Source: a bacterium (GTDB lineage: Bacteria > Omnitrophota > Gorgyraeia > Velamenicoccales > JABMQK01). Taken from it: a DNA stretch of 25,009 nucleotides. Position numbers and translations under genes: made by a program. The DNA is taken from positions 1 to 25,009 of the forward strand of contig JABMQK010000209.1 in assembly GCA_013203265.1 (NCBI GenBank), written 5' to 3'. Shown here in pieces: positions 1 to 25,009 of this stretch. The notes beneath the pieces were generated by a model. It made no database searches. It was not told the DNA's origin and saw only the letters and a program-made list of their open reading frames with translations. Every line of letters begins with the position of its first letter. Within the stretch, counting starts at the first letter, position 1.

Positions 1-10
1 TAAAGATACG

Positions 11-155
11 TCAGCCTTTGGCTGAAATTCCGACCGCCCTTTGTCTCAAAGGGCGGGACCAGATAGGCATTACTTAATTCCGATACGACCCAGCCCTTTT
101 GAAAAAAGGGCTGTCCGAAAGGAAGGTAGTGCACGAGAGTGAGTGCCTATCTGGT
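11..155. repeat. Cluster of palindromes / multi-hairpin intergenic element upstream of rsmD (left edge may be cut by the window)
   Basis: Hairpins TCAGCC-ttt-GGCTGA (11-25) and CCGCCCTTTG-tct-CAAAGGGCGG (34-56). A long stem ACCAGATAGGCAT (58-70) / GTGCCTATCTGGT (143-155) encloses CAGCCCTTTT-gaa-AAAAGGGCTG (91-113) and TCC-GAAA-GGA (114-123). Confidence 0.8.
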
Positions 156-260
156 TAAAAAATTTATTATCAATTAGATTTTCTTTAAGTCCAACTTTGA
201 TAACCCAAAGTCATATTAGAGAAAAGCTTAAATAGAGATTAGTAGAAAGTTTTTATTTTT

Positions 261-827
261 ATGCGAGTCAATAGTGGATTATTTAAATCGAGAATAATAA
301 ATTACCCTAAGCACATTCGTCCTACGGCAGATAAGGTGAGAAAGGGGTTGTTTGATGTTTTGAGGGCCAAGATAGTTGATTCGCATTTTTTAGAGTTGTT
401 TGCAGGTAGTGGAGCTGTAGGAATTGAGGCTTTATCCAATGGTGTCAATGAAGTATTTTTTGTAGAGAAAGATAGGCAATGTTGTAAGATTATAGAGAAA
501 AACCTATCACAGTTAGGCTTAGTGCCTAAAGAGGACGATACATATAAGAATATATTTATTTTAGCAATGGATGCTTTCAGGATAATTGATATTTTTTCTA
601 GAAAAAATAGGAAGTTTGACATTATTTTCTTGGATCCGCCGTACTATAAGGATCTTGCAAAAAAAACCTTGCAAAAGTTAGCAGCCTGTGATATATTATC
701 GCCTCACGCTTTGATTGTTGTAGAACATAGTAGAAGAGATTGTCTCGATGAGAGCATTTTTAACTTAACTTCTTTTAAACAAAAGAGATACGGAGATACA
801 GTATTATCATTTTACAAGAAGATGTAA
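261..827 (+). CDS. rsmD: 16S rRNA (guanine966-N2)-methyltransferase RsmD
   Basis: RPTADKVR, FLELFAGSGAVGIEALS (SAM-binding) and DIIFLDPPY motifs; canonical position upstream of coaD. Confidence 0.95.
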   Translation: MRVNSGLFKSRIINYPKHIRPTADKVRKGLFDVLRAKIVDSHFLELFAGSGAVGIEALSNGVNEVFFVEKDRQCCKIIEKNLSQLGLVPKEDDTYKNIFILAMDAFRIIDIFSRKNRKFDIIFLDPPYYKDLAKKTLQKLAACDILSPHALIVVEHSRRDCLDESIFNLTSFKQKRYGDTVLSFYKKM

Positions 828-858
828 TGTAGGGGGCGCATTGCAATACTCCCTTGCA
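828..858 (+). repeat. Degenerate GTAG-type REP palindrome
   Basis: tGTAGGGGGCGcATTGCAATacTCCCTTGCa: GTAG tag at 829-832, self-complementary core ATTGCAAT (840-847), imperfect GC-rich arms in AT-rich surroundings. Confidence 0.6.
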
Positions 859-884
859 TATTCGATTAACAAAAAGAGAAAAAA

Positions 885-1370
885 ATGTGCCAAAAAGCCA
901 TATATCCAGGTAGTTTTGATCCCATAACTTATGGCCATATCGATATAATAAAACGGGCATTAAAGATTTTTGATGAGGTAATTGTGGCCGTAGCAAATAA
1001 TTCTAGCAAAAGACCACTCTTGTCTACATCAGAAAGAGTAAAAATGGTTAAACAAGCTACAAAGGGTTTTGATCGTATAGTGGTTGAGAGTTTTGATGGA
1101 TTGGTTGTTGAATATGCGCACAAGAAAAGGATAGGGGTTATCGTAAGGGGATTGCGAATGATCTCTGATTTTGAATACGAATTTCAGATGGCGCTTACAA
1201 ATAGAAAGTTAGCCCCCGATGTAGAAACCATATATCTTATGCCTTCAGAGTCATATAGTTATATTTCATCTAAGTTGTTAAAAGAAGCCGCTTTTTTAGG
1301 TGCGGATATATCTAATTTTGTTCCGAAATCTATAGAAAAGAAATTAAAGGCGAAATTCAAAAAGAAGTAG
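885..1370 (+). CDS. coaD: Phosphopantetheine adenylyltransferase
   Basis: AIYPGSFDPITYGHIDII (HxGH-type motif), RGLRMISDFEYEFQMA, ISSKLLKE. Confidence 0.98.
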   Translation: MCQKAIYPGSFDPITYGHIDIIKRALKIFDEVIVAVANNSSKRPLLSTSERVKMVKQATKGFDRIVVESFDGLVVEYAHKKRIGVIVRGLRMISDFEYEFQMALTNRKLAPDVETIYLMPSESYSYISSKLLKEAAFLGADISNFVPKSIEKKLKAKFKKK

Positions 1371-1384
1371 ATGTTATATTTTTT

Positions 1385-1816
1385 ATGAAGATAGATATAA
1401 TGAGGCTAAAAGAAAACATAGTTGATAATTTTCAGGAATCGTATGATCCTAGAGACCTCGATTTAGACACCAGTGAAGTAAAATACCAAGACAGTATTAA
1501 TATTTCTACAGAAGTAAGAAAAGAGATGCGAGTCCTTTTTGCCAAAACACATTTTAGCGCTACAGTTGAATTGATTTGTTCTCGTTGTCTTAAACAATAT
1601 AGAAATGTGATAGATAGAGATTTTGATATTAAATATCCTTTGGATAAATCAGAACAATTTGTCGATATTACACAAGACATAAGGCAAGAGATTATTTTAG
1701 GTTATCCTGTAAAATTCTTGTGCAAGCCTGATTGTCGTGGACTTTGCCCTAGATGTGGCAAAGATTTAAACAAAGGGGTTTGTGATTGTCAAATGAAGTC
1801 CAAACTTAGCGAATAG
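1385..1816 (+). CDS. yceD: DUF177/YceD family metal-binding protein
   Basis: CSRCL and CKPDCRGLCPRCGKDLNKGVCDC cysteine motifs; canonical position upstream of rpmF. The last ~8 codons overlap the composite repeat. Confidence 0.9.
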   Translation: MKIDIMRLKENIVDNFQESYDPRDLDLDTSEVKYQDSINISTEVRKEMRVLFAKTHFSATVELICSRCLKQYRNVIDRDFDIKYPLDKSEQFVDITQDIRQEIILGYPVKFLCKPDCRGLCPRCGKDLNKGVCDCQMKSKLSE

Positions 1817-2032
1817 GGTGAAGCTAAGTTTGATGTCTGAATTTGACCCCCACACCAATTTTTGTTTAGAATAGAGTGGGATCTGTAAAAATATTCTATA
1901 AATTACGTATGAATCACCATAAACCAAAACAATTTGTAGAATTGGTGTGGGGGTTCAATTCCGACTAACAACTTATGTTTGTCCGCCACAAAATATTGTC
2001 GGACTCCATAAGTTGTGTCGTCATTGAAGGAG
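1788..2032. mobile_element. Composite three-stem palindromic element (MITE/REP-like), copy 1
   Basis: Stem 1 CAAACTTAGC (1801-1810) / GCTAAGTTTG (1823-1832); stem 2 GAATTTGACCCCCACACCAATT (1839-1860) / AATTGGTGTGGGGGTTCAATTC (1940-1961); stem 3 ACAACTTATG (1968-1977) / CATAAGTTGT (2007-2016). Same skeleton recurs at 24272-24501. Mobility is inferred, not shown. Confidence 0.7.
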
Positions 2033-2040
2033 AGTAACTA

Positions 2041-2271
2041 ATGGCTTTACCTAAACGTAGACATTCGGTAGCAAGAGGAAGAAAGCGTCGCACGCATTGG
2101 AAGATAAATTTGCGCCAGACTATTATTTGTCCTCAATGCAAACAAGAAAAGCTGCCGCATCACATCTGTCCATCCTGTGGTTATTATAAAGGCAAAGAGG
2201 TTTTAAAGATTGAGACTGTTGCGGAGAGAAAGAAAAGAAAAGAGAAAAAAAGAGACAAAAGAAAGAAATAA
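2041..2271 (+). CDS. rpmF: 50S ribosomal protein L32, zinc-binding (C+) form with basic C-terminal extension
   Basis: MALPKRRHSVARGRKRRTHW, CPQC and HICPSCGYY; SD AAGGAG at 2027-2032. Confidence 0.97.
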   Translation: MALPKRRHSVARGRKRRTHWKINLRQTIICPQCKQEKLPHHICPSCGYYKGKEVLKIETVAERKKRKEKKRDKRKK

Positions 2272-2304
2272 CTTTTTATTTTCGTAAAAGCTTTTGATAC
2301 ATTC

Positions 2305-2507
2305 GGCGGCGCCAAACCTTACCATTTATGGTGGGGACAAAAGCGCCGCCTCAGTATTCCTTCGACATGCTCAGGATGCTTCGAAGGATGCTGAGCGAAG
2401 CCGAAGCACAACCCTGAGCCCGTTCGACTTTGCTCAGGGCTCAGTCCTGAGCTTAGTCGAAGGACTGAGCAAACTCTGGTTTAGCTCGGGGTGCGTCGAA
2501 AGGGTTG
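2305..2507. repeat. Nested array of REP-like palindromes (TTCGAC-nnn-GCTCAGG ... CCTGAGC-nnn-GTCGAAGG family) preceded by a GC-rich hairpin
   Basis: GGCGGCGC (2305-2312) / GCGCCGCC (2343-2350) encloses CCTTACCAT-tt-ATGGTGGGG. Arms CCTTCGACATGCTCAGG (2359-2375), TGCTGAGCGAAGCCGAAGCA (2389-2408), CCGTTCGACTTTGCTCAGG (2420-2438), TCCTGAGCTTAGTCGAAGGA (2445-2464); CAACCCT (2409-2415) / AGGGTTG (2501-2507). Confidence 0.85.
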
Positions 2508-2584
2508 ATTTTGTATTAATGGTTTTGATTATTTAAGAATTCAAAGAGGATATAAAAAAGAATTGTAAGTTAACGGAGAAGAAG

Positions 2585-3613
2585 ATGAAGATAGCTGTTG
2601 ATGCTATGGGCGGTGATCATGCTCCAAAGGTTGTAGTTCAAGGAGCGGTAGAGGCTGTGAAGAACTATGATTTAGATATTTTGCTTGTTGGGAATTCCAA
2701 GCTAATAGAAAAAGAAATTCGTAAAATTAGAAATTGTCCCAAAGACAGGATTAAAATTGTCCATACCGACGAAGTTATCGAAATGGATGATTTACCAACA
2801 GCGAGTGTGCGAAGGAAGAAAAACTCTTCGATTTCCTTAGGAATAAATTTACTAAAGTCAAAAGAAGCTGATGCATTTGTTAGTGCAGGCAATACTGGTG
2901 CGGTTGTTTGTGCAGGGACGTTATATTTAGGTTTGCTGCCTGGGATTGAGCGTCCGGGAATTGCTATATTGTTCCCTACACTAAAGGGTATTTCATTAGT
3001 CGTTGATGTAGGGGCGAATATCGACCCTAAACCACTGCATCTTTTACAATATGCAATAATGGCAGATGCATATTATAGGCATGTGTTGGGACATAAAGAT
3101 AAACCAAGCCTTGGTCTATTAAATGTTGGCGAAGAGGTTACAAAGGGAACTGAATTTGTAAAAGAAACACATAGATTGCTTAGTCAGAGTTCACTAAATT
3201 TTGTTGGCAATGTTGAGGGGAAAGAAATATTTTCTGGAAATTGCCATATAATCGTTTGTGATGGATATGTGGGTAATGTAGCCCTTAAAGTTACAGAAAG
3301 TGTAGCAGAGATGCTCACTGAATTTCTACGAAGAGCGATACTAAGAGGTTTCTGGGGTAAGTTAGGGACATTGTTTTTAATTGGGAATTTAAGACGTTTC
3401 AAAAAAGATATAGATTATTCTGAATATGGAGGAGCGCCACTTTTAGGTGTTAATGGAGTAGTTATTATTGCCCACGGTCGTTCTTCCAGTAATGCTATAA
3501 AGAATGCAATTAGAGCTGCTAAGCTAGAGGTTGATAATGGAGTAAATCAGAAAATTATCGATGTAGTATCAATTGTACAAAAGAAAGTTACCTCACAAGA
3601 TACTCTCCTTTAA
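2585..3613 (+). CDS. plsX: Phosphate acyltransferase PlsX
   Basis: KIAVDAMGGDHAP, VSAGNTGA, RPGIA, DVGAN, GLLNVGEE, GNVEG, CDGYVGNVALK, GGAPLLGV, HGRS. Confidence 0.98.
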   Translation: MKIAVDAMGGDHAPKVVVQGAVEAVKNYDLDILLVGNSKLIEKEIRKIRNCPKDRIKIVHTDEVIEMDDLPTASVRRKKNSSISLGINLLKSKEADAFVSAGNTGAVVCAGTLYLGLLPGIERPGIAILFPTLKGISLVVDVGANIDPKPLHLLQYAIMADAYYRHVLGHKDKPSLGLLNVGEEVTKGTEFVKETHRLLSQSSLNFVGNVEGKEIFSGNCHIIVCDGYVGNVALKVTESVAEMLTEFLRRAILRGFWGKLGTLFLIGNLRRFKKDIDYSEYGGAPLLGVNGVVIIAHGRSSSNAIKNAIRAAKLEVDNGVNQKIIDVVSIVQKKVTSQDTLL

Positions 3614-3629
3614 AAAATCATTATAAATA

Positions 3630-4577
3630 ATGTTGGCATTTATTTTTCCTAGTCAGGGCGCTCAGTTTGTTGGAATGGGCAAGGATCTTTATGAGAATTT
3701 CTCTAGCTCAAGAGATATATTTAAAAAAGCAGATGAGGTGTTAGAATTTAGTGTTTCAGACCTTTGTTTTAATGGTCCACCAGATAAATTAATCTCAACA
3801 GAGAATGCTCAACCAGCGATATTAACAGTCAGTATTGCTGCCTTAGAGGCCATTAAAGAATATATTAAAAATACTTCTTCCAATTTAAACTTGTTGCCTA
3901 AATTTGTTGCTGGTTTGAGTTTGGGTGAGTATTCTGCGCTTGTCGCAGCAGATGTTTTATCATTTGAAGATGGGGTCTGCTTAGTGAGGAAACGAGGCCA
4001 ATTTATGGAAGAAGCAGCAAGGAATAATCCTGGTAAGATGCTTTCTATAATTGGTCTCTCCAAGGAAGTTGTTGAGGGAATTTGTAAGAGCAGTGATTGC
4101 GAGATTGCAAACTTAAACTGCCCAGGTCAAATTGTTATTTCTGGAAAGATTGATCAGATAGAAAGGGCGATGAATTTAGCCAAGGATAAAGGTGCAAAAC
4201 GAACTATTTTATTGGATGTAAGCGGTGCTTTTCATTGTTCTTTAATGAAGGAAGCAGAGTTAAAACTGGCTTCAGAAATTCATAAGTTAAAATTTAATCC
4301 ACCCAAAATTCCCATCATCAGCAACGTTACAGCTAAGAGCCAGGAAGATATAGATGGCATTTCCAATAATTTAATAAAACAGGTAAGTTCTTCTACATAT
4401 TGGGAGGATTCTATCAGTTTTATGGTTGCACAAGGAGTAGATTGTTTTTTGGAGATCGGCCCTGGAGTTGTATTGAGAGGATTAAATAGAAGGATAGCCC
4501 CAGATATCAAGACACTAAATTTAGGCAATATAGAACAAATTAAGTCTTTTGTTTCTGATAATCTAAAAAATAATTAG
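3630..4577 (+). CDS. fabD: Malonyl-CoA:ACP transacylase
   Basis: FIFPSQGAQFVGMG, TENAQPAI, GLSLGEY (catalytic Ser), NLNCPGQIVISG, VSGAFHC, EIGPG. Confidence 0.97.
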   Translation: MLAFIFPSQGAQFVGMGKDLYENFSSSRDIFKKADEVLEFSVSDLCFNGPPDKLISTENAQPAILTVSIAALEAIKEYIKNTSSNLNLLPKFVAGLSLGEYSALVAADVLSFEDGVCLVRKRGQFMEEAARNNPGKMLSIIGLSKEVVEGICKSSDCEIANLNCPGQIVISGKIDQIERAMNLAKDKGAKRTILLDVSGAFHCSLMKEAELKLASEIHKLKFNPPKIPIISNVTAKSQEDIDGISNNLIKQVSSSTYWEDSISFMVAQGVDCFLEIGPGVVLRGLNRRIAPDIKTLNLGNIEQIKSFVSDNLKNN

Positions 4578-4588
4578 AAGGAGAACGA

Positions 4589-5329
4589 ATGAAATTAAAA
4601 GACAGAGTAAGTTTGATTACAGGAGCGGCAAGAGGCATAGGTAGAGAAATCGCTCTTAAATTTGCCAAGGAAGGCAGCGATATCGTTGTTTGTGATGTAG
4701 ATTTAGAAGCGGCTCAGAATACACAGAAGGAGATTGAAGAATTGGGTCGTCGGGCTCTAAGTTTTAAAGTTGATGTTACTAATTTAGGACAGATTGAAGA
4801 GATGGTGAATTTAATACTTGACAAATTCTCTAAGATTGATATATTAGTAAACAATGCTGGCATTACAAAAGACAATTTAATCTTAAGGATGTCAGAAGAA
4901 GATTGGGATAAAGTGCTCTCTGTCAATTTAAAAGGCGCATTCAACTGTATGAAGGTTGTATCGCGCAGAATGCTTAAGAAGCGATATGGAAAAATCGTAA
5001 ATATTGCTTCGATTATCGGCATGATTGGAAATGCTGGCCAATCAAATTATGCTGCATCCAAAGGTGGCTTGATAGCTTTAACTAAATCCCTGGCAAAAGA
5101 GTTGGCTTCACGAAATATCAACGTAAATGCAGTTGCCCCGGGTTTTATTGAAACGCCTATGACAGCAAAATTACCAGAGGATTATAAGAAGCTGATGTTA
5201 GAAAATATTCCTATGGGTAAGTTTGGCGGACCGGAAGATGTGGCAAAGGTTTGTTTATTTTTGGCCGGTTCTGAATCCGATTACATAACAGGACAGGTGA
5301 TTGTAGTCGATGGTGGCATGATTATGTAG
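4589..5329 (+). CDS. fabG: 3-oxoacyl-ACP reductase
   Basis: ITGAARGIG, LVNNAGIT, NYAASKGG (YxxxK), NAVAPGFI, ITGQVIVVDGGM. Confidence 0.98.
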   Translation: MKLKDRVSLITGAARGIGREIALKFAKEGSDIVVCDVDLEAAQNTQKEIEELGRRALSFKVDVTNLGQIEEMVNLILDKFSKIDILVNNAGITKDNLILRMSEEDWDKVLSVNLKGAFNCMKVVSRRMLKKRYGKIVNIASIIGMIGNAGQSNYAASKGGLIALTKSLAKELASRNINVNAVAPGFIETPMTAKLPEDYKKLMLENIPMGKFGGPEDVAKVCLFLAGSESDYITGQVIVVDGGMIM

Positions 5330-5447
5330 TTGCAGCATAGTCAGAGAAGTTACAGAACGTCAAATATTAATTTTAGCAATTGAGATATCATAAATCTCTG
5401 CACTTACAGATTGTTAAGTAAGTGGACATAAAGCAGGAGGTAGACAA

Positions 5448-5693
5448 ATGGTAGATGTACCAGAAAAAATTAAGTCCATAATTTCAGAACAATTAGGAGT
5501 AAAACCAGAAGAGGTTACTCCACAGGCTTCATTTATCGAGGACTTAGGTGCTGATTCTCTTGATACAGTGGAGTTGGTTATGGCATTGGAAGAGGAATTT
5601 GGAGTTGAGATTCCTGATGAAGATGCAGAAAAAATGGCCACCGTTGGAGATGCTATTAAATATATCGAAGAAAAATCTAATAGCAAACAATAA
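5448..5693 (+). CDS. acpP: Acyl carrier protein
   Basis: [20 protein letters not shown] (phosphopantetheine Ser); SD AGGAGG upstream. Confidence 0.98.
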
Positions 5694-5716
5694 AATAAAT
5701 ATAGATTTTAAATTGT

Positions 5717-5748
5717 GCCCTCCAATTATTTTTGGGGGGTTTCTCTTT
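5717..5748 (+). terminator. Probable (weak) intrinsic terminator after acpP
   Basis: GCCCTCCAA (5717-5725) / TTGGGGGGT (5732-5740) stem with G-U pairs, followed by TTCTCTTT. Confidence 0.55.
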
Positions 5749-5761
5749 ATATAAGATTGTT

Positions 5762-7006: not shown

Positions 7007-7045
7007 ATTTAACAACCTGCATTACTTTCACTGCATTTATTTTTA

Positions 7046-8314: not shown

Positions 8315-8805
8315 TTATTAGAGGAAAAGTTCATAAATTCGGCAATGATATCAACACCGACGATATTATTGCCGCAAAATATTTAAATACTACTGATGCC
8401 AAAGAATTGGGTAAGCACTGTATGGAGACAATCGATTCAGATTTTATACAGAAAGTATCAAAGGGAAATATCATAGTGGGAGGCAAAAATTTTGGCTGTG
8501 GTTCGTCTCGCGAGCATGCTCCTATAGCTATTAAAGGATGCGGCATTTCTTTGGTAATTGCAAAAAGTTTTGCTAGAATATTTTTTAGAAACTCTGTTAA
8601 TATTGGTTTGCCTATATTGGAATTAAAAGATGAAGGTAAGATAAATGAAGGTGATGAATTAGAGGTGGATTTAACAAAAGGTAAAGTTAGAAATTTAATT
8701 CAAAATAAAATTTATGAATCACAGGCATTTGCTGAGTTTATGCAGGAATTAATTCAATCAGGGGGATTGATGAAATGGATTCGAAGAAAACACAATACAA
8801 AATAG
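8311..8805 (+). CDS. leuD: 3-isopropylmalate dehydratase small subunit (short type)
   Basis: [34 protein letters not shown]; ATGA overlap with leuC. Confidence 0.92.
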
Positions 8806-9842: not shown

Positions 9843-9866
9843 CAAATACAAAATTGAGGATTAATC

Positions 9867-10955
9867 ATGAAGAAAAAGAAGGCATATAATGTTGCAGTCA
9901 TAGGTGTAGGCGTGGTTGGACAGATGATGTTGCGTATTTTGAAAGAACGCAATTTTCCAATTAAGAATTTAAGGGTATTTGCGCGCAGTGCACGTCAGAT
10001 TCAAGTGGATGGGATTAGTTATGACGTTCAAGTTATTAGCCCCGAAGGATTTGAGGGTGTTGATATTGCCTTGTTTGCAGGGACTGAAGGAGAAAAAGGT
10101 GCATCTGTAACTTTTGCTGGTGAAGCGGTAAAGAGGGGAGCGATAGTAATTGATAATGGAGCTGATTTTAGAATGGATCCAGATGTTCCTTTGGTTGTTC
10201 CCGAAGTAAATCCTAAAGATGCAAAAAAATATCGCAAGAAAGGCATAATTGCTAATCCTAACTGTTCAACTATTCAGATGGTTGTTGCTTTATGGCCGAT
10301 ACATAAAGTAGTAAAGATTAAAAGGGTGGTGGTTTCTTCTTATCAAGCTGCATCTGGAGCAGGAAGAGGAACGGTTGAGCAATTATTTAAAGAGACAAAA
10401 GAAATTCTTGATGCAGGATGCAGGATGCCTGCCTTGCCGGCAGGCAGGCAGGAAGCAGGAAGAATTGAACCTGAATCGTGTATTTTGAATCACGAGTCAA
10501 AAATTTTACCTAAACAGATTGCTTTCAATGTTCTTCCTCATATTGGAAGCTTTGGTGAATCTGATTATACCTCTGAAGAGTGGAAGATGGTAAGAGAGAC
10601 GCATAAAATTATGCATAGCGATAAGATAAAAATCAGTGCCACTACTGTGAGAGTGCCAGTTCGAACTGGTCATGCCGAAGCCATTTACATTGAAACAAAA
10701 AAGGATTTTTCTCTTGATCAATTAAGAGAATTATTAAAGAATTCTGCGGGTATCGAATTAATCGATGATCCCAAAAATAATCTTTATCCTCTGCCAATCG
10801 AAGCTGAAGATAAAGATGCTGTTTTTGTTGGTCGAATACGTAAAGACCCATATGTTAAGAATGCATTCTGGCTTTGGGTTGTTTCAGATAATCTTCGTAA
10901 AGGCGCTGCTTTGAACGCAGTGCAAATTGCAGAACTTCTAATAGCTAAGAAATAA
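9867..10955 (+). CDS. asd: Aspartate-semialdehyde dehydrogenase with a repeat-derived internal insertion
   Basis: GVGVVGQ, IDNGADFRMDPDVPLVVPEVN, IANPNCST (catalytic Cys), SYQAASGAG, RVPVRTGHAE, DNLRKGAALNAVQIAE. Confidence 0.97.
   Translation: MKKKKAYNVAVIGVGVVGQMMLRILKERNFPIKNLRVFARSARQIQVDGISYDVQVISPEGFEGVDIALFAGTEGEKGASVTFAGEAVKRGAIVIDNGADFRMDPDVPLVVPEVNPKDAKKYRKKGIIANPNCSTIQMVVALWPIHKVVKIKRVVVSSYQAASGAGRGTVEQLFKETKEILDAGCRMPALPAGRQEAGRIEPESCILNHESKILPKQIAFNVLPHIGSFGESDYTSEEWKMVRETHKIMHSDKIKISATTVRVPVRTGHAEAIYIETKKDFSLDQLRELLKNSAGIELIDDPKNNLYPLPIEAEDKDAVFVGRIRKDPYVKNAFWLWVVSDNLRKGAALNAVQIAELLIAKK
10410..10498. repeat. Heptamer array (GATGCAG) with an inserted 21-bp palindrome, in frame inside asd
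   Basis: GATGCAG GATGCAG GATGC[CTGCCTTGCCGGCAGGCAGGC]AG GAAGCAG, then degenerate inverse heptamers CTGAATC GTGTATT TTGAATC ACGAGTC (10471-10498). Confidence 0.85.
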
Positions 10956-10956
10956 A

Positions 10957-12543
10957 ATGTTTGATAGGAATCAGTCCAGAATAATAATTATTCTTGGATT
11001 ATTGGGAGTTTTTAGTTGTATCTTTTCTTTCTCTCGCCTTTCTGAAATTCCCGCTCTTGATTTTAAATTTCCCCTAGAAAAAGAAAAAATTATTATTAAA
11101 GCAGATAGCTTTATTGATTTACAGGGATATTCTTATAGATCCCCTATAAAAAAAGTCAAAGCCTTATCAGATGAGAAAAATATTATTTATCTTCAGAGAA
11201 GATTTGGCGTTAAAAGAGCCAATCAATTTTTAAAATCTTTACCTCTATATTATTGGCAGATAGATTATGTTTATGGTAAGGACAGAAAATTTCTGTATTC
11301 AAAAAAATCAAGACAGCTTACAAGGATATTCATTAGTCCGGTTGACGGAAAGATAATTGGATTTAATCATTTACCAAAGCCAGAAGAATATAAGCATTTT
11401 CGTATTTTATCAAAGGACGAATCAGAAGCGATAGCGGACGATTTTTTTAGTTTAATAGACTTTGATATTTCTGGTTTTAGAATGTCAAGGTATTCTTCCA
11501 TAGAGAGAAAACATATTTTTGAATGGGAGAAGATTATTCCCGAATTCAAAACAGCAAAATTAAGAATAAAGTTAGATATTTTTGGGGATAAAGTTGGTAA
11601 TTTTTCTTATTTTCTCGAGTTGCATCCTAAAGAAATCAAACAATTCGAATCCGGTAATATTTTAGCTTTAGTCCTGTCTACTGTTTTGAATGTGTTGGTG
11701 TTTGCTTTAGTTATTTTTGTTTTAATAGTTTCAATTAGAAAACGAAAGAAGTTAGAGTGGAAATTCGGCTTACCCTTTGCTTTGTTAATTTTGTTAACTT
11801 CGTTGATAAATTTCTATAAGTTAATTGATTATAAAGGGTCATTTTTGATTACATTTTTGTGTGTTTCTGTTTTTAGTGCTGTTGTCTATTTTCTTTGGAC
11901 GATGATAGTATCATGTGTTGCGAAATTTTTTGCTAAAGAATCGAATATAGATTTTTTCCCAATTAAAGTTTCCTCTTCGATTATGTTAAGTTATATTTTT
12001 GTTTTTACGGGTTTGGGTTTTACTATGTTGATATACGTTTTTATTCAAAAATTATTTAATCCAGTTGCTACTTTGGGATTCTATAGTTTTTTCTCCGAAT
12101 TTCCCCATTTTAGATTTTCTTTTTTAATTGCACCACTCCTATCTTTAAGCGCTGCAGTTGGTGAGGAATTATTTTTTAGGGCCCTTATGATTTCTTTTAT
12201 AAATAGATATTTAAAGAGGATGGGTCCGGCGATTGTGCTATCTAGCCTAATATGGTCTTTTATTCATGTTTCACCGATTGGATATGGCGATGTCTATCCT
12301 GGTTTTGTTAAAGGTCTCATCTTATTGCCAATAGGAATCTTATTTGGTTATATCTTTATAAGATTTGGTTTGGTTTGTGCCATTGTAACCCACTATCTTT
12401 ACGACCTTGTTGCCATAGGAACATCTTATTTAGAATTTAGTAATTTTCGCTATTTGAATGAAAATGTTATTATGATGTTAGCGGCTGCTATTTTGCCATT
12501 ATTAATTGTGTTTTACCTTAAGTTTAAAAAACCTAATGCATAA
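10957..12543 (+). CDS. CPBP (Abi / type II CAAX) family intramembrane glutamic metalloprotease with an N-terminal soluble domain
   Basis: N-terminal hydrophobic helix, ~200 aa polar domain, then many TM segments. Motifs E403-E404-x3-R408 (GEELFFR), SFIH437 and H479-YLY-D483. Confidence 0.75.
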   Translation: MFDRNQSRIIIILGLLGVFSCIFSFSRLSEIPALDFKFPLEKEKIIIKADSFIDLQGYSYRSPIKKVKALSDEKNIIYLQRRFGVKRANQFLKSLPLYYWQIDYVYGKDRKFLYSKKSRQLTRIFISPVDGKIIGFNHLPKPEEYKHFRILSKDESEAIADDFFSLIDFDISGFRMSRYSSIERKHIFEWEKIIPEFKTAKLRIKLDIFGDKVGNFSYFLELHPKEIKQFESGNILALVLSTVLNVLVFALVIFVLIVSIRKRKKLEWKFGLPFALLILLTSLINFYKLIDYKGSFLITFLCVSVFSAVVYFLWTMIVSCVAKFFAKESNIDFFPIKVSSSIMLSYIFVFTGLGFTMLIYVFIQKLFNPVATLGFYSFFSEFPHFRFSFLIAPLLSLSAAVGEELFFRALMISFINRYLKRMGPAIVLSSLIWSFIHVSPIGYGDVYPGFVKGLILLPIGILFGYIFIRFGLVCAIVTHYLYDLVAIGTSYLEFSNFRYLNENVIMMLAAAILPLLIVFYLKFKKPNA

Positions 12544-13312: not shown

Positions 13313-13346
13313 TGTTATCGAAATAACATCGGAGCCAAATTTGATA

Positions 13347-13374
13347 TTGACAAATAGCAAAAAAATGTTATACT
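13347..13374 (+). promoter_or_regulatory. Sigma70-type promoter for rplM-rpsI
   Basis: TTGACA (13347-13352), 16 bp spacer, extended -10 TG-T-TATACT (13369-13374). Confidence 0.75.
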
Positions 13375-13383
13375 TTTATCCTT

Positions 13384-13821: not shown

Positions 13822-13841
13822 ATACAAGAAAGCGTAGAGAT

Positions 13842-14237: not shown

Positions 14238-14295
14238 GCACAAAGTTACATATAAAATAAGACAATAAATTTAATTTTGTAATATAGTGATTATG

Positions 14296-14340
14296 GCCTA
14301 TCTCGACGAAAAAAGCTTGACGAGATGGGTTTTTTATTTT
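14296..14340 (+). terminator. Intrinsic terminator after rpsI
   Basis: GCCTATCTCG (14296-14305) / CGAGATGGGT (14321-14330) stem followed by TTTTTATTTT. Confidence 0.75.
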
Positions 14341-14345
14341 AGGAT
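14317..14345 (+). promoter_or_regulatory. Candidate promoter of the arg-lys operon, overlapping the terminator
   Basis: TTGACG (14317-14322), 17 bp spacer, TAGGAT (14340-14345). Confidence 0.4.
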
Positions 14346-14400
14346 AGTATATACTTATTGACGATAAAAATAAATTTCTCGAGAATTTAGAGGTGATGAA

Positions 14401-16632: not shown

Positions 16633-16643
16633 AGAGGTTAATT

Positions 16644-17501: not shown

Positions 17502-17507
17502 TTCGAT

Positions 17508-19624: not shown

Positions 19625-20790
19625 GAAAGGTTATTTTGGCTTATTCTGGGGGATTAGATACTGCCTGTTGTGTGAAGTGGCTTTCTGATAGAGGCTTTGA
19701 AGTCATTTGTTTTATGGCAGATTTAGGTCAGCCACATGACTTTGCGCCTGCAAAGAAAAGGGCAAAAGTAGCAGGTGTTTCCAAGATTTACATTAAAGAT
19801 TTAAGACAGGAGTTCATAAGAGATTTTATCTGGCCAGCCTTAAAAGCAAATGCCATTTATGAAGAAAAATATACCCTTGCTACAGCTTTAGGTAGGCCAT
19901 TAATCGCTAAATATTTAGTCGATGTAGCACATAAAGAAAAAGCTCATTATATTGCTCACGGATGTACAGGCAAAGGCAATGACCAGCTAAGGATTGAAGT
20001 TAGCTCTATGATTTTAGATCATAAATTAGAAATAATCGCTCCTTTAAGAATTTGGGAATTTAAGACTAGGGAAGAGGAAATTAGATATTTAGCAAAACAT
20101 AAAATTCCTATAGATGTGACCAAGAAAAAACTCTATAGCATTGATGAGAATATTTGGGGAATAAGCATTGAATGTGGCGTTTTGGAAGATCCCTGGAGAG
20201 AGCCTCCACATAATGCTTATCGGCTTACAGCATCGCTTGCTAGTGCTAAGTCAAAACAAGTTTATTTAACAATTGGCTTTAAAGCTGGAGTCCCAGTTGA
20301 AATTAATGGGAAAAAATATCCTGCTTCGGATTTGATTAAGAAATTAAACGCTATTGCAGGTGCCTTTGGCATTGGCAGGACGGATTTGGTGGAGAATAGG
20401 CTCATCGGCATAAAATCTCGGGAGATATATGAAGCCCCTGCAGCTCATCTTTTGATTGCCGCACATAAGGAGATTGAGAGTTTAGTTTTAGATAGGGAGG
20501 TCGCGCATAAAAAGCAGAAGATCGCCTTAGATTATGCAGATATTATTTATTACGGGCTTTGGTTTACGCCACAAAAGAAGAAATTGGATAATTTTATTAA
20601 CAAAACGCAAAAGAATGTTACAGGGACTGTTAGATTAAAACTATTTAAGGGCGGATTTTATTGTGTTGGAAGAAAATCGCCTTATTCTCTATATAAAAAA
20701 GAATTGGCGACTTATGGTAAAGGCGATAAGTTTGATCATTCAAAGGCCAAAGGGTTTATTAAAAATTGGGCAAGACCATATTTAAAATAA
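19621..20790 (+). CDS. argG: Argininosuccinate synthase
   Basis: LAYSGGLDT, LATALGRP, AHGCTGKGNDQ, YSIDENIWG, ENRLIGIKSREIYEAP. Confidence 0.98.
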   Translation: MRKVILAYSGGLDTACCVKWLSDRGFEVICFMADLGQPHDFAPAKKRAKVAGVSKIYIKDLRQEFIRDFIWPALKANAIYEEKYTLATALGRPLIAKYLVDVAHKEKAHYIAHGCTGKGNDQLRIEVSSMILDHKLEIIAPLRIWEFKTREEEIRYLAKHKIPIDVTKKKLYSIDENIWGISIECGVLEDPWREPPHNAYRLTASLASAKSKQVYLTIGFKAGVPVEINGKKYPASDLIKKLNAIAGAFGIGRTDLVENRLIGIKSREIYEAPAAHLLIAAHKEIESLVLDREVAHKKQKIALDYADIIYYGLWFTPQKKKLDNFINKTQKNVTGTVRLKLFKGGFYCVGRKSPYSLYKKELATYGKGDKFDHSKAKGFIKNWARPYLK

Positions 20791-20809
20791 TTTATAAAGA
20801 GAGGTAATT

Positions 20810-22168
20810 ATGGCTAAGAAATTATGGGGTGGAAGATTTAGCAAGAAGACCAATCCATTGGTTGAAGAATTTACATCCTCAATTTCCGTAGATAAAGAAT
20901 TGGCTTTCTACGATGTGATTGGTTCTATTTTACATATAGCTGTTCTCAAAGAAGCTGGATTAGTTTCTAAGGTCGAATATAGTAAAATCGATAGAGCTTT
21001 AAAAGAAATTAAGAAAAGTATTGAATCCGGGAATTTCAAAGTTGATGACAAATCTGAGGATATCCATTCAGATATACAAAATAAGTTGGAAAATAAAATT
21101 GGAAAAGTCGCTATGAAGCTACATACAGCTAGGTCGAGAAATGATCAGGTTGTTTTTGATGTAAAATTTTATTCTGGGCAATCATGTGCAGATGTTGTTA
21201 CATTGATAGCCGAGTTAGCAAAGACGATTTTAAATTTTTCCAACAAAGTTAAAAAGATCAACATCCCAGGATATACTCATCTTCAGCACGCACAGCCTGT
21301 TAGTTTAGCAAATTATTTTTTGTCTTATTATGAAATGTTGATGAGGGATGGGAATAGGATAGTTAGTTTCGGGGATAGGATAAAATTATCATTAGGTTCT
21401 GGAGCTTTAGCTGGAACAGTGATAGATGTTAGTAAATACAACAAGGCTATAACTAGTGCCTGTAAGAAACTAGGACTTAAGTTTGGAGAGCAGATTTTTT
21501 CTGTAGATAACAGTATTGATAATGTTAGCGATAGAGATTTTGTTATTGAGGCGTTGAGCGCTTTGGCGATTATAGGTATGCACCTTTCCAGATTAGCGGA
21601 AGATTTAATTATCTGGTCGACTTCCGAATTTGGATTTATTGAACTCGACGATGCATTTTGCACAGGTAGTTCCTTAATGCCACAGAAGAAGAATCCAGAC
21701 GTCTTAGAGTTAATCAGAGGCAATACAGGTAAACTTTATGGAAACTTAATGTCTGTTTTAGTTATGATGAAAGGTTTGCCTTTAGCTTATAATAGGGATA
21801 TGCAGTTGGATAAAGAGCCTTTATTTAGTTCATTTAAAATAATCAAAGATGAATTGAAAATTTTGTCAAAATTAATACCAAAGATTAAAATTAATGAAAG
21901 CAATATTAATGAGCAACTTAAGGATGAATCTTTATATGCAACGGACATAGCGCATTATCTTGTTACAAAAGGGATAGCTTTTAAAGAGGCGCATAAGATT
22001 ATTGGAAATTTAGTAAGATTTTCTTTGAATAATAAAATCAAAATAAAAGATATGACAAATGAGCAGTTGAATAAATTCAGTCAGTTTCTTAATCAAAAGA
22101 TTATTAATAAATTAATGGATCCGGTTTATTCTGTAAAATCAAAGAAATCGATTAGAAAGAAACAATAA
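20810..22168 (+). CDS. argH: Argininosuccinate lyase
   Basis: KLWGGRF, EDIH, HTARSRNDQ, PGYTHLQHAQP, GSSLMPQKKNPD, PLAYNRDMQLDK. Confidence 0.98.
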   Translation: MAKKLWGGRFSKKTNPLVEEFTSSISVDKELAFYDVIGSILHIAVLKEAGLVSKVEYSKIDRALKEIKKSIESGNFKVDDKSEDIHSDIQNKLENKIGKVAMKLHTARSRNDQVVFDVKFYSGQSCADVVTLIAELAKTILNFSNKVKKINIPGYTHLQHAQPVSLANYFLSYYEMLMRDGNRIVSFGDRIKLSLGSGALAGTVIDVSKYNKAITSACKKLGLKFGEQIFSVDNSIDNVSDRDFVIEALSALAIIGMHLSRLAEDLIIWSTSEFGFIELDDAFCTGSSLMPQKKNPDVLELIRGNTGKLYGNLMSVLVMMKGLPLAYNRDMQLDKEPLFSSFKIIKDELKILSKLIPKIKINESNINEQLKDESLYATDIAHYLVTKGIAFKEAHKIIGNLVRFSLNNKIKIKDMTNEQLNKFSQFLNQKIINKLMDPVYSVKSKKSIRKKQ

Positions 22169-22173
22169 AACAT

Positions 22174-23430
22174 ATGCATTATTTTACATACAAAGATAAT
22201 AATTTGTATTGCGAAGATGTAAAGGTAGGCGATATCGTAGAGAAGTTTGGTTCACCTTGTTATGTCTACAGTTACCGGACTTTAATTGAGCACTTTAGAA
22301 AGTTAAAGAGTGCTTTTAGCGCGGTAAAACCTCTGATTTGTTATTCTGTTAAGGCTAATTCTAATCTGGCAATTTGCAAGGCATTGGTTAATGAAGGCGC
22401 GGGTTTAGACGTTGTTTCTGGAGGCGAACTCTACAGAGCATTAAAGATAAAGACGAATCCAAAAAAGATAGTATTTGCAGGTGTGGGAAAAACCGATAAA
22501 GAAATTAGGGGAGCTATCAAGGCAGGGATTTTGTTTTTTAATGTTGAGTCAGAAGCAGAGATGCAGCGTCTGCATGAGATTTCTATTAGATTAAGAAGGT
22601 CTATTAATGTGTGCTTAAGGGTAAATCCCGAGGTAGATCCCCATACACACAGGTATATAAAAACAGCCAAAAAAGAAAGTAAGTTTGGTTTAAGTTTTTC
22701 TGCAGCAAGATTCATCTTAATTAATAAAGTAAGATTTTTTAATGTTCATATAAAGGGGCTGCATATTCATATTGGCTCACAAATAACAGAAGCCAGGCCA
22801 TATATCCAGGCAATAAAAAAAGTAAGCACCTTTATAAAAGAGATGAATAGTGCAGGAGTTAAATTAGAATATTTAAATATCGGCGGAGGAATGGGTATTA
22901 ACTATAAGAATGAAAAGGCGCAAACTCCAAAGGTCTTTGCTAAAGCGATAGTTCCTTTACTTAAAAAGACAGGGCTTAAGATTATTTTGGAGCCCGGCAG
23001 GTTTATTGTGGGTAGTGCAGGAATTTTAGTTTCGAGAGTCACTTTTGTCAAAGAGACAGGATCAAAGAATTTTTTAATCTTAGATAGTGGCATGAACGAT
23101 TTGATTCGTCCCAGTTTATATGAGGCTTATCACGAGATTGTGGCGCTGCACAAAAGACCTAAGTCCAGACAAAAGAAATACGATATCGTTGGTCCGATTT
23201 GTGAGAGTGGAGACTTTTTAGCAAAAGATAGATTGATGCCTCAAATAAGATCAGGTGAATACTTGGCGATAATGTGTTCGGGCGCTTATGGTTTTAGTAT
23301 GAGCTCAAATTACAATTCTCGTCCTAGAGCAACTGAGGTTTTAGTTAAAGGAGCGGGTTTCTTTTTAGTAAGAGCTAGAGAATCTTATTTGGATTTAATA
23401 AAGAAAGAAAAGTTTCCTTGGTTTTTGTAA
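22174..23430 (+). CDS. lysA: Diaminopimelate decarboxylase
   Basis: YSVKANSN (PLP Lys), DVVSGGE, HIHIGSQ, EPGRF, GPICESGD, GAYG, YNSRPR. Confidence 0.98.
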   Translation: MHYFTYKDNNLYCEDVKVGDIVEKFGSPCYVYSYRTLIEHFRKLKSAFSAVKPLICYSVKANSNLAICKALVNEGAGLDVVSGGELYRALKIKTNPKKIVFAGVGKTDKEIRGAIKAGILFFNVESEAEMQRLHEISIRLRRSINVCLRVNPEVDPHTHRYIKTAKKESKFGLSFSAARFILINKVRFFNVHIKGLHIHIGSQITEARPYIQAIKKVSTFIKEMNSAGVKLEYLNIGGGMGINYKNEKAQTPKVFAKAIVPLLKKTGLKIILEPGRFIVGSAGILVSRVTFVKETGSKNFLILDSGMNDLIRPSLYEAYHEIVALHKRPKSRQKKYDIVGPICESGDFLAKDRLMPQIRSGEYLAIMCSGAYGFSMSSNYNSRPRATEVLVKGAGFFLVRARESYLDLIKKEKFPWFL

Positions 23431-23433
23431 ATT

Positions 23434-24303
23434 GTGATTACAATGGTTAAGAAGAGCAACAAATTGAATTTCACAAAATTAGTTGCAAGTGGAAATGATT
23501 TTGTCCTCCTAGATTTAAGAGGTCAAAAAAAGCACTTAAATCTAGGGGCAATTGCGAAGAAACTTTGCAATCGAAAATTAGGGATTGGCGCAGATGGTCT
23601 GCTCGTTTTAGAAAGATCAAAAAGAGCCAATGTTAAAATGCGCATATTCAATCCAGACGGCTCTGAGGCAGAGATGTGCGGTAACGGAGCAAGATGTGTA
23701 GGTTATTTTATAAAAAATACAAAGCCCGCTGTCAAAGGTCAGATTAAAATCAGAACCAAAGCCGGAATCTTAAATGCTCAAGTAAGCAAAAATAATGTAA
23801 GAGTAAATATGACTGATCCCAAGAATATTAGATTAGATTCAGTTGTTAAGTTAAATAAACATTCTCTACGATTTAATTTCATCAACACAGGTGTACCTCA
23901 TACAGTAATTTTATGTGAAGGAATTGAAAGGATAGATGTTGATGCTTTAGGAAGGTTAATTAGATATCACAAGAGATTTAAGCCGAAAGGAACCAATGTG
24001 GATTTTATTGAACCCAGAGCATTAAACAACATTAGAATTAGAACATATGAAAGAGGGGTTGAAGAGGAAACATTAGCTTGTGGCACAGGAGCTGTTGCGG
24101 CAGCGGTTATTTATGTGTTGAAATTAAGGCAGTCTGGTTTAATAAGAGAAAATAAGTTATGTGTAAATGTTGATACAATTTCAGGTGAGATGCTGAAGGT
24201 ATTCTTTAATGTGATTAAAAATAAAATAAAAAATGTCTGGTTAGAAGGAAAAGCAGAGATAATTTGTGAGGGTCAAATGAAGCTCAAACTTATGGAGCGA
24301 TAG
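23434..24303 (+). CDS. dapF: Diaminopimelate epimerase (start GTG 23434 or ATG 23443)
   Basis: GNDF, GIGADG, NPDGSEAEMCGNG, TGVPH, TNVDF, TYERGVEEETLACGTG (both catalytic Cys). The last ~9 codons overlap the composite repeat. Confidence 0.97.
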   Translation: MITMVKKSNKLNFTKLVASGNDFVLLDLRGQKKHLNLGAIAKKLCNRKLGIGADGLLVLERSKRANVKMRIFNPDGSEAEMCGNGARCVGYFIKNTKPAVKGQIKIRTKAGILNAQVSKNNVRVNMTDPKNIRLDSVVKLNKHSLRFNFINTGVPHTVILCEGIERIDVDALGRLIRYHKRFKPKGTNVDFIEPRALNNIRIRTYERGVEEETLACGTGAVAAAVIYVLKLRQSGLIRENKLCVNVDTISGEMLKVFFNVIKNKIKNVWLEGKAEIICEGQMKLKLMER

Positions 24304-24501
24304 CGAACATAAGTTTGTTAGCTGAATTTGACCCCCCACCACTTTTTATTAGACATCGTTCATTAAAAGTGGTGGGGGGTTTAATTCGCACAGTGACTTA
24401 TGTCTTTCGACCACGCTCAGGACATAATCCTGAGTTTATCGAAGGATTATGTTTACTCACTTTGTTCGTTCCATAAGTCACGTGCTCATTAAAAGGGGGA
24501 G
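24272..24501. mobile_element. Composite three-stem palindromic element (MITE/REP-like), copy 2
   Basis: Stem 1 CAAACTTATG (24285-24294) / CATAAGTTTG (24308-24317); stem 2 GAATTTGACCCCCCACCACTTTT (24324-24346) / AAAAGTGGTGGGGGGTTTAATTC (24365-24387); stem 3 GTGACTTATG (24393-24402) / CATAAGTCAC (24472-24481). Same skeleton as 1788-2032. Confidence 0.7.
24404..24446. repeat. REP-like hairpin (TTCGAC...GCTCAGG family) nested in stem 3 of the composite element
   Basis: CTTTCGACCACGCTCAGG-acataa-TCCTGAGTTTATCGAAGGA, flanked on both sides by TTATGT (24398-24403 and 24447-24452). Confidence 0.85.
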
Positions 24502-24505
24502 TGTT

Positions 24506-25009
24506 ATGTCTAAAGTTTTTAAGGGCTCTATGGTTGCAATTGTTACACCTTTTTCCGCCTCTGGCGGAAAAGATTTGGTAGTTGATGAAAAGAAATTAAG
24601 AGAGTTGGTGAAATTTCAAATTGATAATGGCACTAGTGGGATTATTCCTTGTGGGACGACTGGAGAGTCTCCAACTTTAGACTATAATGAGCACGATAAG
24701 GTAATCGAGATTTGTATTGAAGTTGCCAAAGGAAAAATTCCTGTAATCGCTGGAACAGGGTCTAATTCTACTGACGAAGCGATTAGAATAACAAAACATG
24801 CTGCCAAGGCCGGAGCAGATGCATCATTGCAGGTTTCACCATACTATAATAAACCAACGCAGAAAGGTCTATATCTACATTTTAAAGCTATAGCTGATTC
24901 TGTTGATATTCCTATTATTCTTTATAATATTGCCGGACGCACAGGGGTAAATATTGAGCCAGAGACAATGGCAAAACTAGCACAGAATTGTAAAAATATC
25001 GTTGGTGTA
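24506..25009 (+). CDS. dapA: 4-hydroxy-tetrahydrodipicolinate synthase, 5' part (runs off the window; absent from the ORF track)
   Basis: Manual translation: MSKVFKGSMVAIVTPF...PCGTTGESPTL...IAGTGSNST...SPYYNKPTQKG...LYNIAGRTG; SD GGGGAG upstream. Confidence 0.97.
   Translation, partial: MSKVFKGSMVAIVTPFSASGGKDLVVDEKKLRELVKFQIDNGTSGIIPCGTTGESPTLDYNEHDKVIEICIEVAKGKIPVIAGTGSNSTDEAIRITKHAAKAGADASLQVSPYYNKPTQKGLYLHFKAIADSVDIPIILYNIAGRTGVNIEPETMAKLAQNCKNIVGV
24554..24568. repeat. 15-bp palindrome in frame inside dapA (encodes SASGG)
   Basis: TCCGCC-tct-GGCGGA between codons TTT (Phe16) and AAA (Lys). Confidence 0.75.

Follow-up and report, generated by a model that had tools for sequence, protein, structure and literature searches.

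A GIY-YIG nuclease cassette as the probable parent of hairpin elements at gene junctions in a Candidatus Omnitrophota genome

The 25,009-bp window analysed here is a complete contig (C203) of a Candidatus Omnitrophota metagenome-assembled genome (MAG; G000 below) of 1.02 Mb, which comprises 210 contigs, is 71% complete and has 36% G+C. Two of its gene junctions, yceD-rpmF and dapF-dapA, hold copies of a dispersed element, family A, which is probably the gene-less form, like a miniature transposable element with inverted repeats (MITE), of a cassette of ~410–480 bp that encodes a small GIY-YIG nuclease; the nuclease would act in trans and start the copying. A candidate enzyme is thereby named for repeats that make up about one-tenth of the intergenic DNA (13.9 kb present in at least three copies by self-BLAST of the whole MAG) and that break the assemblies of these genomes, contig ends being 3.6-fold enriched in repeats. 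The ecosystem of small non-autonomous palindromes is real, sits at gene junctions and rewrites gene ends.

Family A is a polar element of three hairpins, designated L, central GC and R, and its anatomy was determined from an alignment of 35 nhmmer loci and a scan for the terminal hairpins. The L hairpin consists of TCAAATGAAG, a variable segment V, AACTTAyG, the loop, CrTAAGTT, the complement of V and CTGAATTTGA. An example of the central GC hairpin is CCCCCCACCAC..GTGGTGGGGGG, and the R hairpin consists of TTyAATTCGC, V, AACTTATG, the loop, CATAAGTT, the complement of V and GCGCTCATTrAA, so that the ends of the element are TCAAATGA.. and ..TCATTrAA. Gene-less copies are 140–240 nt long and gene-bearing copies 410–480 nt. 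Family A thus has the inverted-repeat ends, the lack of an open reading frame (ORF) and the longer enzyme-bearing relative with the same ends by which a MITE is recognised. The scan found 86 terminal hairpins on 50 contigs of G000, corresponding to 23 paired elements and about 40 singles, many of them at contig ends, and the family was present in 21 of 41 relatives belonging to several families of the class. Compensatory changes preserve the hairpins. In the terminal hairpins, which include two conserved tandem G-A motifs, 96% of cells were paired compared to 79% in column shuffles, and 108 cells carried a double change compared to a shuffle mean of 29 and maximum of 44.

Ten gene-bearing copies were found in eight genomes from two families, by matching the coordinates of PF01541 matches with those of family A matches across genomes. 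They include two in G000 (contigs C130 and C194), two in G003 and one each in G001, G004, G005, G008, G010 and G020. Nine are complete, and in G010 only the L hairpin was found. All nine complete copies run from the L hairpin through the 5' arm of the central hairpin, the ORF and the 3' arm of that hairpin to the R hairpin and then the Shine-Dalgarno (SD) sequence of the host gene. The ORF encodes 80–95 residues, is co-oriented from L to R and consists of the catalytic domain alone. The GIY and YIG motifs, the Arg and the Glu are conserved in nine aligned copies; one copy (G003a) has an in-frame stop. Both G000 genes match PF01541 over the cut-off, and the closest solved structures to the protein are the UPF0213 chains 1zg2 (E = 3.6e-9) and 1ywl. 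The gene-less window copy at dapF-dapA (A2) has central arms, CCCCCCACCACTTTT..AAAAGTGGTGGGGGG, that are letter-identical to those enclosing the gene in G003, G005 and G008. These arrangements make the GIY-YIG nuclease a strong candidate for the enzyme of family A, and it may be what drives the mobility of the element.

At its foot the L hairpin has a conserved TTGACC, which lies approximately 40–60 nt upstream of the nuclease start in full-length copies and could serve as the promoter of the nuclease gene. A 10/12 sigma-70-like match at this position was seen only in the window copy at yceD-rpmF (A1; window 1843–1872).

Ssn proteins are single-domain GIY-YIG nucleases (cd10448) of ~94 residues that cut single-stranded DNA beside NTS/SRM hairpin repeats, and these repeats, besides flanking the ssn gene, are scattered in hundreds of copies (Chenal et al. 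2025, Nat Commun 16:2388, PMC11893778). The layout of repeat, ssn gene and repeat was remarked on by the authors as resembling an insertion sequence (IS), with mobility left as a hypothesis, and Omnitrophota are not mentioned in the paper (PMC11893778). Judged by its sequences, the system described here appears to be a variant of the Ssn-type nuclease/hairpin-repeat systems. In common with Ssn, the family A protein is a catalytic domain alone of about 90 residues, and its gene lies between hairpin repeats that are also dispersed without it (nine complete copies compared to the 86 terminal hairpins). However, the family A repeat is a polar composite of three hairpins and 140–240 nt, whereas the Ssn hairpin is about 30 nt. 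Family A also differs in sitting precisely at junctions of stop codon and SD sequence, in having both filled and empty orthologous sites, and in having UPF0213 proteins as the closest solved relatives of its protein. The published SRM motif, HGTCWYN(0-2)YYVSBRHN(0-5)WNVSBRGN(0-2)RNCYNB, had two matches in the 1.02 Mb of G000 compared to one to three in shuffles, and none of them was in the repeats. In the literature we found neither a description of Omnitrophota repeats nor a follow-up to the Ssn paper.

By analogy with the related Ssn nucleases, the family A nuclease would recognise the hairpins in trans as single-stranded DNA, and its cuts would start the copying of the element into new junctions via repair or recombination. 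This route is proposed because GIY-YIG enzymes hydrolyse DNA and we know of none that rejoins it. The seg genes of phage T4 offer a parallel, as these are also small GIY-YIG genes that lie between host genes, co-oriented with them, and can spread by break repair. The homing endonucleases of phages and introns have a DNA-binding domain and home to one allelic site, whereas the family A protein is a bare catalytic domain and the element is found at dozens of unrelated junctions per genome.

Alternatively, the gene could be a secondary, homing-type invader of the central hairpin of a pre-existing repeat that is spread or maintained by another agent, the gene-less form being ancestral and not a deletion product. 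This is consistent with the position of the gene, which is always exactly the loop of the central hairpin, and with the gene-less copies, which have short, well-formed loops and no deletion scars. Several types of central arm (CCCCCCACCAC, CCCCGCCC and CCCTTGACA) were each found with a gene, and gene-less copies greatly outnumber full-length ones (two in G000 compared to 86 terminal-hairpin matches). Nevertheless, we consider this order of events unlikely. No other enzyme was linked to the repeat, the terminal hairpins accompany the gene in every full-length copy in two bacterial families, and Ssn nucleases use the repeats flanking their own genes as substrates.

The position of family A relative to genes was consistent. 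In 19 of 23 cases the L end directly adjoins the 3' end of a co-oriented gene or extends up to 39 nt into it, and in 13 of 14 cases a gene starts right beside the R end, usually with the SD sequence directly 3' of ..CATTrAA. Both the cassette and the gene-less form occupy gene junctions in the direction of transcription. The relatives used for comparison of individual junctions were G001, which is the nearest (PlsX 82% identical), and G003 and G004, which belong to one genus of the same family (PlsX 78–79% identical), with others where stated. All window genes are on the + strand, and all window coordinates are given for this strand.

The first ORF-less copy, A1 (1789–2028; terminal-hairpin scan), lies between yceD and rpmF and is made up of an L hairpin (1789–1846), a central hairpin with a 79-nt loop (1847–1953) and an R hairpin (1954–2028). 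It is followed directly by the SD sequence GGAGAG and then the rpmF ATG at 2041. The L hairpin encodes the last eight codons of yceD (1385–1816; Pfam YceD), QMKSKLSE, and its TAG stop (1814–1816). In G003 and G004 the same junction contains no element, and yceD ends in ..CQVK* or ..CKVN*, followed by AAGGAG and the rpmF ATG. From these empty junctions, the tail of the window YceD is derived from the element and the SD sequence GGAGAG is native. In G001 the junction is occupied by a 480-nt copy that bears a GIY-YIG gene, found on the reverse strand of locus L128 and encoding 95 aa. Gene-bearing and gene-less copies are therefore found at one identical junction in two genera, though the hairpin variable regions differ, so that two separate insertions may have taken place. 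On a contig of run X4, 1778–2040 is skipped, but as the letters in between are not reported this was not read as an empty allele. The loop of the A1 R hairpin contains a small hairpin, GTCCGCC..GTCGGAC (1981–2004; from the sequence), and similar CCGCC modules were seen in the loops of family A hairpins in contigs C118 and C166 and in G001.

The second ORF-less copy, A2 (24273–24493, 221 nt; terminal-hairpin scan), lies between dapF (23434–24303; NCBIfam DapF) and dapA (24507–25009; NCBIfam DapA), which runs off the end of the contig. Its L, central (CCCCCCACCAC..GTGGTGGGGGG) and R hairpins are at 24273–24331, 24332–24379 and 24380–24493, and it is flanked by GAGGG on the left and by the native SD sequence AGGGGGAG on the right, followed by the dapA ATG at 24507. 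The last nine codons of dapF, QMKLKLMER, and its TAG stop (24301–24303) are encoded by the L hairpin, and yceD and dapF enter their L hairpins in one and the same frame. This junction is empty in all four same-family relatives (G001–G004), where dapF overlaps the start of dapA, e.g. ..AAAGGAGAAACTCATGTCTAG, and DapF ends in ..KGETHV*, ..KGVYYA*, ..QGDCYV* and ..KGEVYV*, respectively. Family A elements thus rewrite the C-termini of the essential proteins YceD and DapF. The first-pass annotation of this DNA, which was made from the window alone, had the elements supplying both stop codons and SD sequences. The stops of yceD and dapF are indeed within L hairpins, but the SD sequences are native and unchanged at the empty sites. 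An apparent N-terminal extension of DapA from an ATG at 24449 is an artefact of ORF calling inside the R hairpin. The window sequence MSKVFKGS.. aligns with MSREFRGS, MPKIFKGS, MSKKIFKGS and MFRVFKGS in the relatives, which places the start at 24507.

At a third junction, on contig C206, no element was present in G001, G004 or G005, whereas G000 has one, flanked by an 11-nt direct repeat, GGAGGTTCTAA. The junction was also filled in G003, by a different copy, although its congener G004 is empty. Insertion differences of this kind, between genera and within one genus, indicate that family A has moved on the time-scale of genera. Empty alleles were found at orthologous junctions of relatives and, for family B (below), in a paralogous copy and in a related strain's contig. 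The direct repeats flanking complete copies were 0, 3–5 or 11 nt long and always involved the SD sequence. A target-site duplication of fixed length, which is characteristic of a MITE and its transposase, was not found for family A, and the variable SD-containing repeats suggest microhomology rather than a transposase with a fixed stagger. With both filled and empty junctions available, as well as gene-bearing and gene-less copies that have the same arms, the mobility of hairpins by a GIY-YIG enzyme is directly testable.

Several observations weigh against a nuclease-driven MITE-like element. The flanking repeats are irregular (0–11 nt), and the filled yceD-rpmF junction lacks approximately 14 nt of the sequence found at the empty site, so this insertion was not a simple paste. 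The copies in G000 are at most 93% identical (over 119 nt) and typically 85–90%, giving no sign of a very recent burst, though such a burst could be hidden by identical repeats that were collapsed or not assembled in a MAG of 210 contigs. The copying step is a conjecture, as GIY-YIG enzymes hydrolyse without rejoining, and the published SRM motif does not match family A. Small GIY-YIG ORFs were found in all 41 genomes by the PF01541 search, and the third such gene of G000, on C132 (PF01541 E = 5e-19), is not flanked by the hairpins; the same is true of most of the 30 best Pfam GIY-YIG loci of the relatives. The A-linked genes therefore represent one subfamily among several. In favour of the nuclease, the number of family A copies followed the number of GIY-YIG matches (rho 0.43) over the 41 genomes, which are related to one another and in some cases incomplete. 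The last point against it is that the strict polarity of the element and its conservation across the phylum could also reflect a host function.

If this were so, the elements would be host-functional intercistronic RNA modules, involved in processing, mRNA stabilisation, attenuation or translational insulation, that are kept by selection and are not selfish. Their strict co-orientation with transcription and placement between stop codon and SD sequence are what such modules would show, as are the strong covariation, the two tandem G-A motifs and a GNNA-like loop. The L hairpin is ~80% identical across families whose DapF proteins are only ~50% identical. However, the orthologous junctions of close relatives function although no element is present, in some cases with the stop codon overlapping the next start codon, and some copies carry a nuclease gene. 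In addition, the loops hold nested junk of variable length and the central hairpins were not called as terminators by a simple scan. No Rfam family was matched, as a scan of all families at E ≤ 1 returned only two chance miRNA matches (E = 0.2 and 0.7) on hairpins. A purely host-functional origin therefore appears improbable, though a host role is compatible with mobility, as co-option after insertion is possible.

Short non-autonomous inverted repeats that alter gene ends include the palindromic elements of Rickettsia, the Correia elements of Neisseria and the MITEs of Coxiella. Bacterial MITEs lie within one another and take up spacer DNA; ORFs run through them, and proteins gain residues from them. 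Family A differs from MITEs in that its parent encodes no DDE transposase, its flanking repeat has no fixed length and its orientation is strictly polar with transcription.

Families B and C and a set of mini-palindromes are probably further non-autonomous hairpins that land mostly in the stems or loops of larger elements and occasionally in frame within genes. The family B unit is CCT-TCGAC-nnn-GCTCAGG, a loop of 5–6 nt and CCTGAGC-nnnn-GTCGA-AGG. About seven units were found in G000 using short-query BLAST and a loose pattern, and the pattern was found in nine of 61 genomes of the class, compared to no matches for the reversed control pattern. An array of GC-rich hairpin modules in the rpmF-plsX spacer (2292–2510; BLAST against contig C190) contains a hairpin (2305–2350), half-units (2359–2396) and one complete B unit, and 128 nt of it are 97.7% identical to C190:729–856. 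The corresponding spacers of the relatives are 80–100 nt long and do not contain the array. An 80-aa ORF that runs through the array (2294–2536) is spurious and had no family match. Together with the wrong dapA start, it shows that gene callers are misled by these elements.

The complete unit with its target duplication (2414–2470) consists of CTGAGC, an arm (2420–2438), the loop GCTCAG, an arm (2445–2464) and a second CTGAGC. In the paralogous C190 copy CTGAGC runs directly into AAAC.., without the 51 nt that make up the unit and one copy of the repeat, and exactly the same 51 nt are missing from the orthologous rpmF-plsX spacer on a contig from another sample (run X8). Other array modules are missing from X3 and X4 contigs. 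The joints in the X3, X4 and X8 contigs (window 2357–2509) are 2357–2480, 2395–2487 and 2419–2509. These contigs derive from other samples, of freshwater, marine and aquatic origin, and the array thus differs from strain to strain in its number of modules.

The second B unit in the window (24398–24452) is nested in the loop of the A2 R hairpin and consists of TTATGT, an arm, the loop ACATAA, an arm and TTATGT, where uninterrupted R hairpins of other family A copies have ..ACTTATGT-loop-CATAAGT... For each of the two units in the window, the flanking direct repeat and the loop are reverse complements. Across nine genomes, 24 of 28 strand views had a loop that matched the inverted target on both sides, compared to a mean of 2.5 and a maximum of 10 for permuted loops. 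The targets are in the stems of other repeats. In one instance, on C166, a B unit was found within the arm of another B unit, inside a family A hairpin loop that also holds CCGCC hairpins. One 15-nt arm was found with four unrelated loops in three genomes, indicating that the loop is either re-made from the target at each insertion or a freely evolving guide. With empty sites verified, a loop that is the inverted target could point to target-guided or target-templated insertion chemistry. We tentatively raise the possibility that the loop is a guide that pairs with a single-stranded target or is copied from the target at each insertion, in which case family B and the GIY-YIG cassette together would make Omnitrophota a reservoir of transposase-free hairpin insertion directed by single-stranded DNA. 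To our knowledge no described mobile element has a guide loop or a target-copied loop of this kind. No ORF was linked to B units in 16 loci of seven genomes. Derivations of the B architecture from staggered-cut transposition, inverted duplication, fold-back synthesis, an IS-circle junction, integron attC logic or an IS608-type guide were rejected, as each requires extra assumptions.

Family C is a composite that is cut by the start of the contig (1–154; from repeat copies elsewhere in the MAG). It consists of the hairpin TCAGCC-TTT-GGCTGA, AATTCCGA, the hairpin CCGCCC..GGGCGG and a long stem, CCAGATAGGCA..TGCCTATCTGG, which encloses two more hairpins, one of them GTAG-headed. A 92% identical copy with one hairpin swapped was found at C74:1–158 on the - strand and partial copies in C57, C173, C85 and C94. 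The predicted fold had a minimum free energy of -73 kcal/mol over 160 nt and there was no match to family C in Rfam. The sequence directly 3' of the composite (155–215), TTTAAGTCCAACTTTGATAACC, is similar to a 3' arm from a family A hairpin that has decayed, and in C74 the family C composite sits in the loop of a family A hairpin. The start of the contig may thus lie within a nested element.

The mini-palindromes are of two main types. CCGCC..GGCGG mini-hairpins were found in 18 copies in the genome, where all-G/C hairpins of 5 bp numbered 54 compared to 3–14 in shuffles, and CCTGCC..GGCAGG palindromes with a GCCGGC centre were found at approximately 10 loci. Both types have entered genes. Comparison with G001–G004 revealed a 15-nt perfect palindrome, TCCGCC-TCT-GGCGGA, in frame in dapA (24554–24568). 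The insert, TCCGCCTCTGGCGGA, adds SASGG, giving VTPF-SASGG-KD.. in the window compared to VTPF-K[DN].. in the relatives, and its palindrome unit, tCCGCCTCTGGCGGa, belongs to the 18-copy family and is also found in C136. Comparison of Asd lengths revealed an in-frame extra segment in asd (10410–10462), made up of 2.5 copies of GATGCAG (10410–10427), a 21-nt palindrome, CCTGCCTTGCCGGCAGGCAGG (10428–10448), and two heptamers of the GAAGCAG type (10449–10462). The window Asd has 16 residues more than its counterparts in G001, G002 and G004, located in a length-variable loop, and over 20 more than those in G005–G007. Palindromes of the asd type were found at about 10 other loci, mostly intergenic, and the reverse complement is part of an intergenic composite in C173. 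The heptamer tandem in this essential gene is in frame only via its total length together with the 21-nt palindrome. The smaller elements thus enter DapA and Asd in frame, and the extra residues noticed at first sight are confirmed, with 16 in Asd, five in DapA and new tails on YceD and DapF.

The enzymes suggested in the first-pass annotation, namely Y1-HUH transposases including RAYT, IS200/IS605 TnpA, reverse transcriptase and four-helix-bundle proteins, were not supported, the partner of the main family being the GIY-YIG gene. Family A does have features in common with the repetitive extragenic palindrome (REP) systems of proteobacteria (BIME and REPIN-RAYT), which also comprise dispersed extragenic palindromes in mosaic arrays, one small enzyme gene flanked by its own repeats and hairpins maintained by compensatory change. 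In contrast, the family A enzyme is a hydrolytic GIY-YIG nuclease and not a Y1 tyrosine transposase, and the element has no GTAG head and no linkage or co-occurrence with PF01797. A REP/REPIN-type system moved by a Y1 HUH transposase, either RAYT or IS200/IS605 TnpA, would be consistent with the two Y1_Tnp genes of G000, on C187 and C156, with the mismatched hairpins, which are typical HUH substrates, with the GTAG- and CGTC-headed hairpins of family C and with the complementarity of the family B loop and target, which recalls the pairing of guide and cleavage site in IS608. However, what flanks the C187 gene is a 19-nt inverted repeat of its own, with no further copy in the assembly. Units of families A, B and C were all absent from beside this gene (4784–5461), and beside the C156 gene only ORFs and no repeat were listed. 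Phylogenetic profiling of the repeats against Y1/RAYT genes had been suggested, and for family A it revealed no correlation (Spearman rho 0.08 between A copies and Y1_Tnp matches in the 41 genomes, again related and in part incomplete). Family A was present without a PF01797 match in G001, G010, G020 and G026, and about 14 genomes had Y1 genes but no family A. In addition, GTAG was not enriched. With neither linkage to Y1 genes nor co-variation, the families do not represent an already described REP/RAYT system, and movement by a Y1 transposase is very unlikely. The C187 gene (4760–5557 including the inverted repeat, AAAGGGGACGGTTCTATTT) encodes a RAYT-like Y1_Tnp protein of 225 aa.

When the whole MAG was examined by self-BLAST, the repeated DNA of the window was confined to four spacers (1–154, 1779–2047, 2292–2468 and 24258–24499), with that in 1779–2047 resolved into 1779–1870 and 1937–2047. 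The proposal that small palindromes occupy four of the larger spacers was therefore correct. Of the families originally listed, the three-stem composite with GACC-footed hairpins is family A, the TTCGAC/GCTCAGG doublets are family B, and the CCGCC- and GCCGGC-type mini-palindromes are both real and dispersed in the genome. The count of five was not supported, as GATGCAG and the GTAG REP are not dispersed families. The GATGCAG heptamer is limited to the ~2.5 tandem units in asd, the other seven matches in the window being unrelated coding sites, and GTAG was observed 140 times compared to approximately 166 expected from base composition, the sole repeated GTAG-headed hairpin being the family C module. 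Elements do nest in each other, e.g. the B unit in the A2 R-hairpin loop. The impression of current activity is moderately supported for family A, where copies are no more than 93% alike, and better supported for family B. An additional repeat family, CGAACCACTCACTTCGTTCGGGTTCGGGACGGTTCAGG, was found in four copies in C30, C93, C175 and C176 of G000 and has CTCACTTCGTTCG in common with the loops of family A R hairpins.

The other spacers, at 5330–5447, 5694–5731, 13313–13383 and 14238–14400, are unique. The window genes are, in order, an rsmD-like methyltransferase, coaD, yceD, rpmF, plsX, fabH, fabG, acpP, fabF, leuC, leuD, leuB, asd, a gene for a 528-aa membrane protein, truA, rplM, rpsI, argC, argJ, argB, argD, argF, argG, argH, lysA, dapF and dapA. 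The names of rpmF, plsX, fabH, fabG, acpP and fabF are from gene order and sequence, and that of leuC is from its position upstream of leuD. As originally stated, the window encodes no mobilising enzyme; its genes include neither a transposase nor a nuclease or reverse transcriptase, and a scan of the window for tRNA and tmRNA found none. The closest relatives of the window DapF are all from Candidatus Omnitrophota MAGs. The spacer at 14238–14400 contains an ordinary hairpin followed by a T-run (~14291–14335), which was found by eye from the sequence, outside the terminator scan. The 528-aa membrane protein is encoded between asd and truA (10957–12543) and its sole domain is Rce1-like (CAAX protease) and C-terminal. 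This region is the most AT-rich in the window, with 29% G+C and a negative AT skew.

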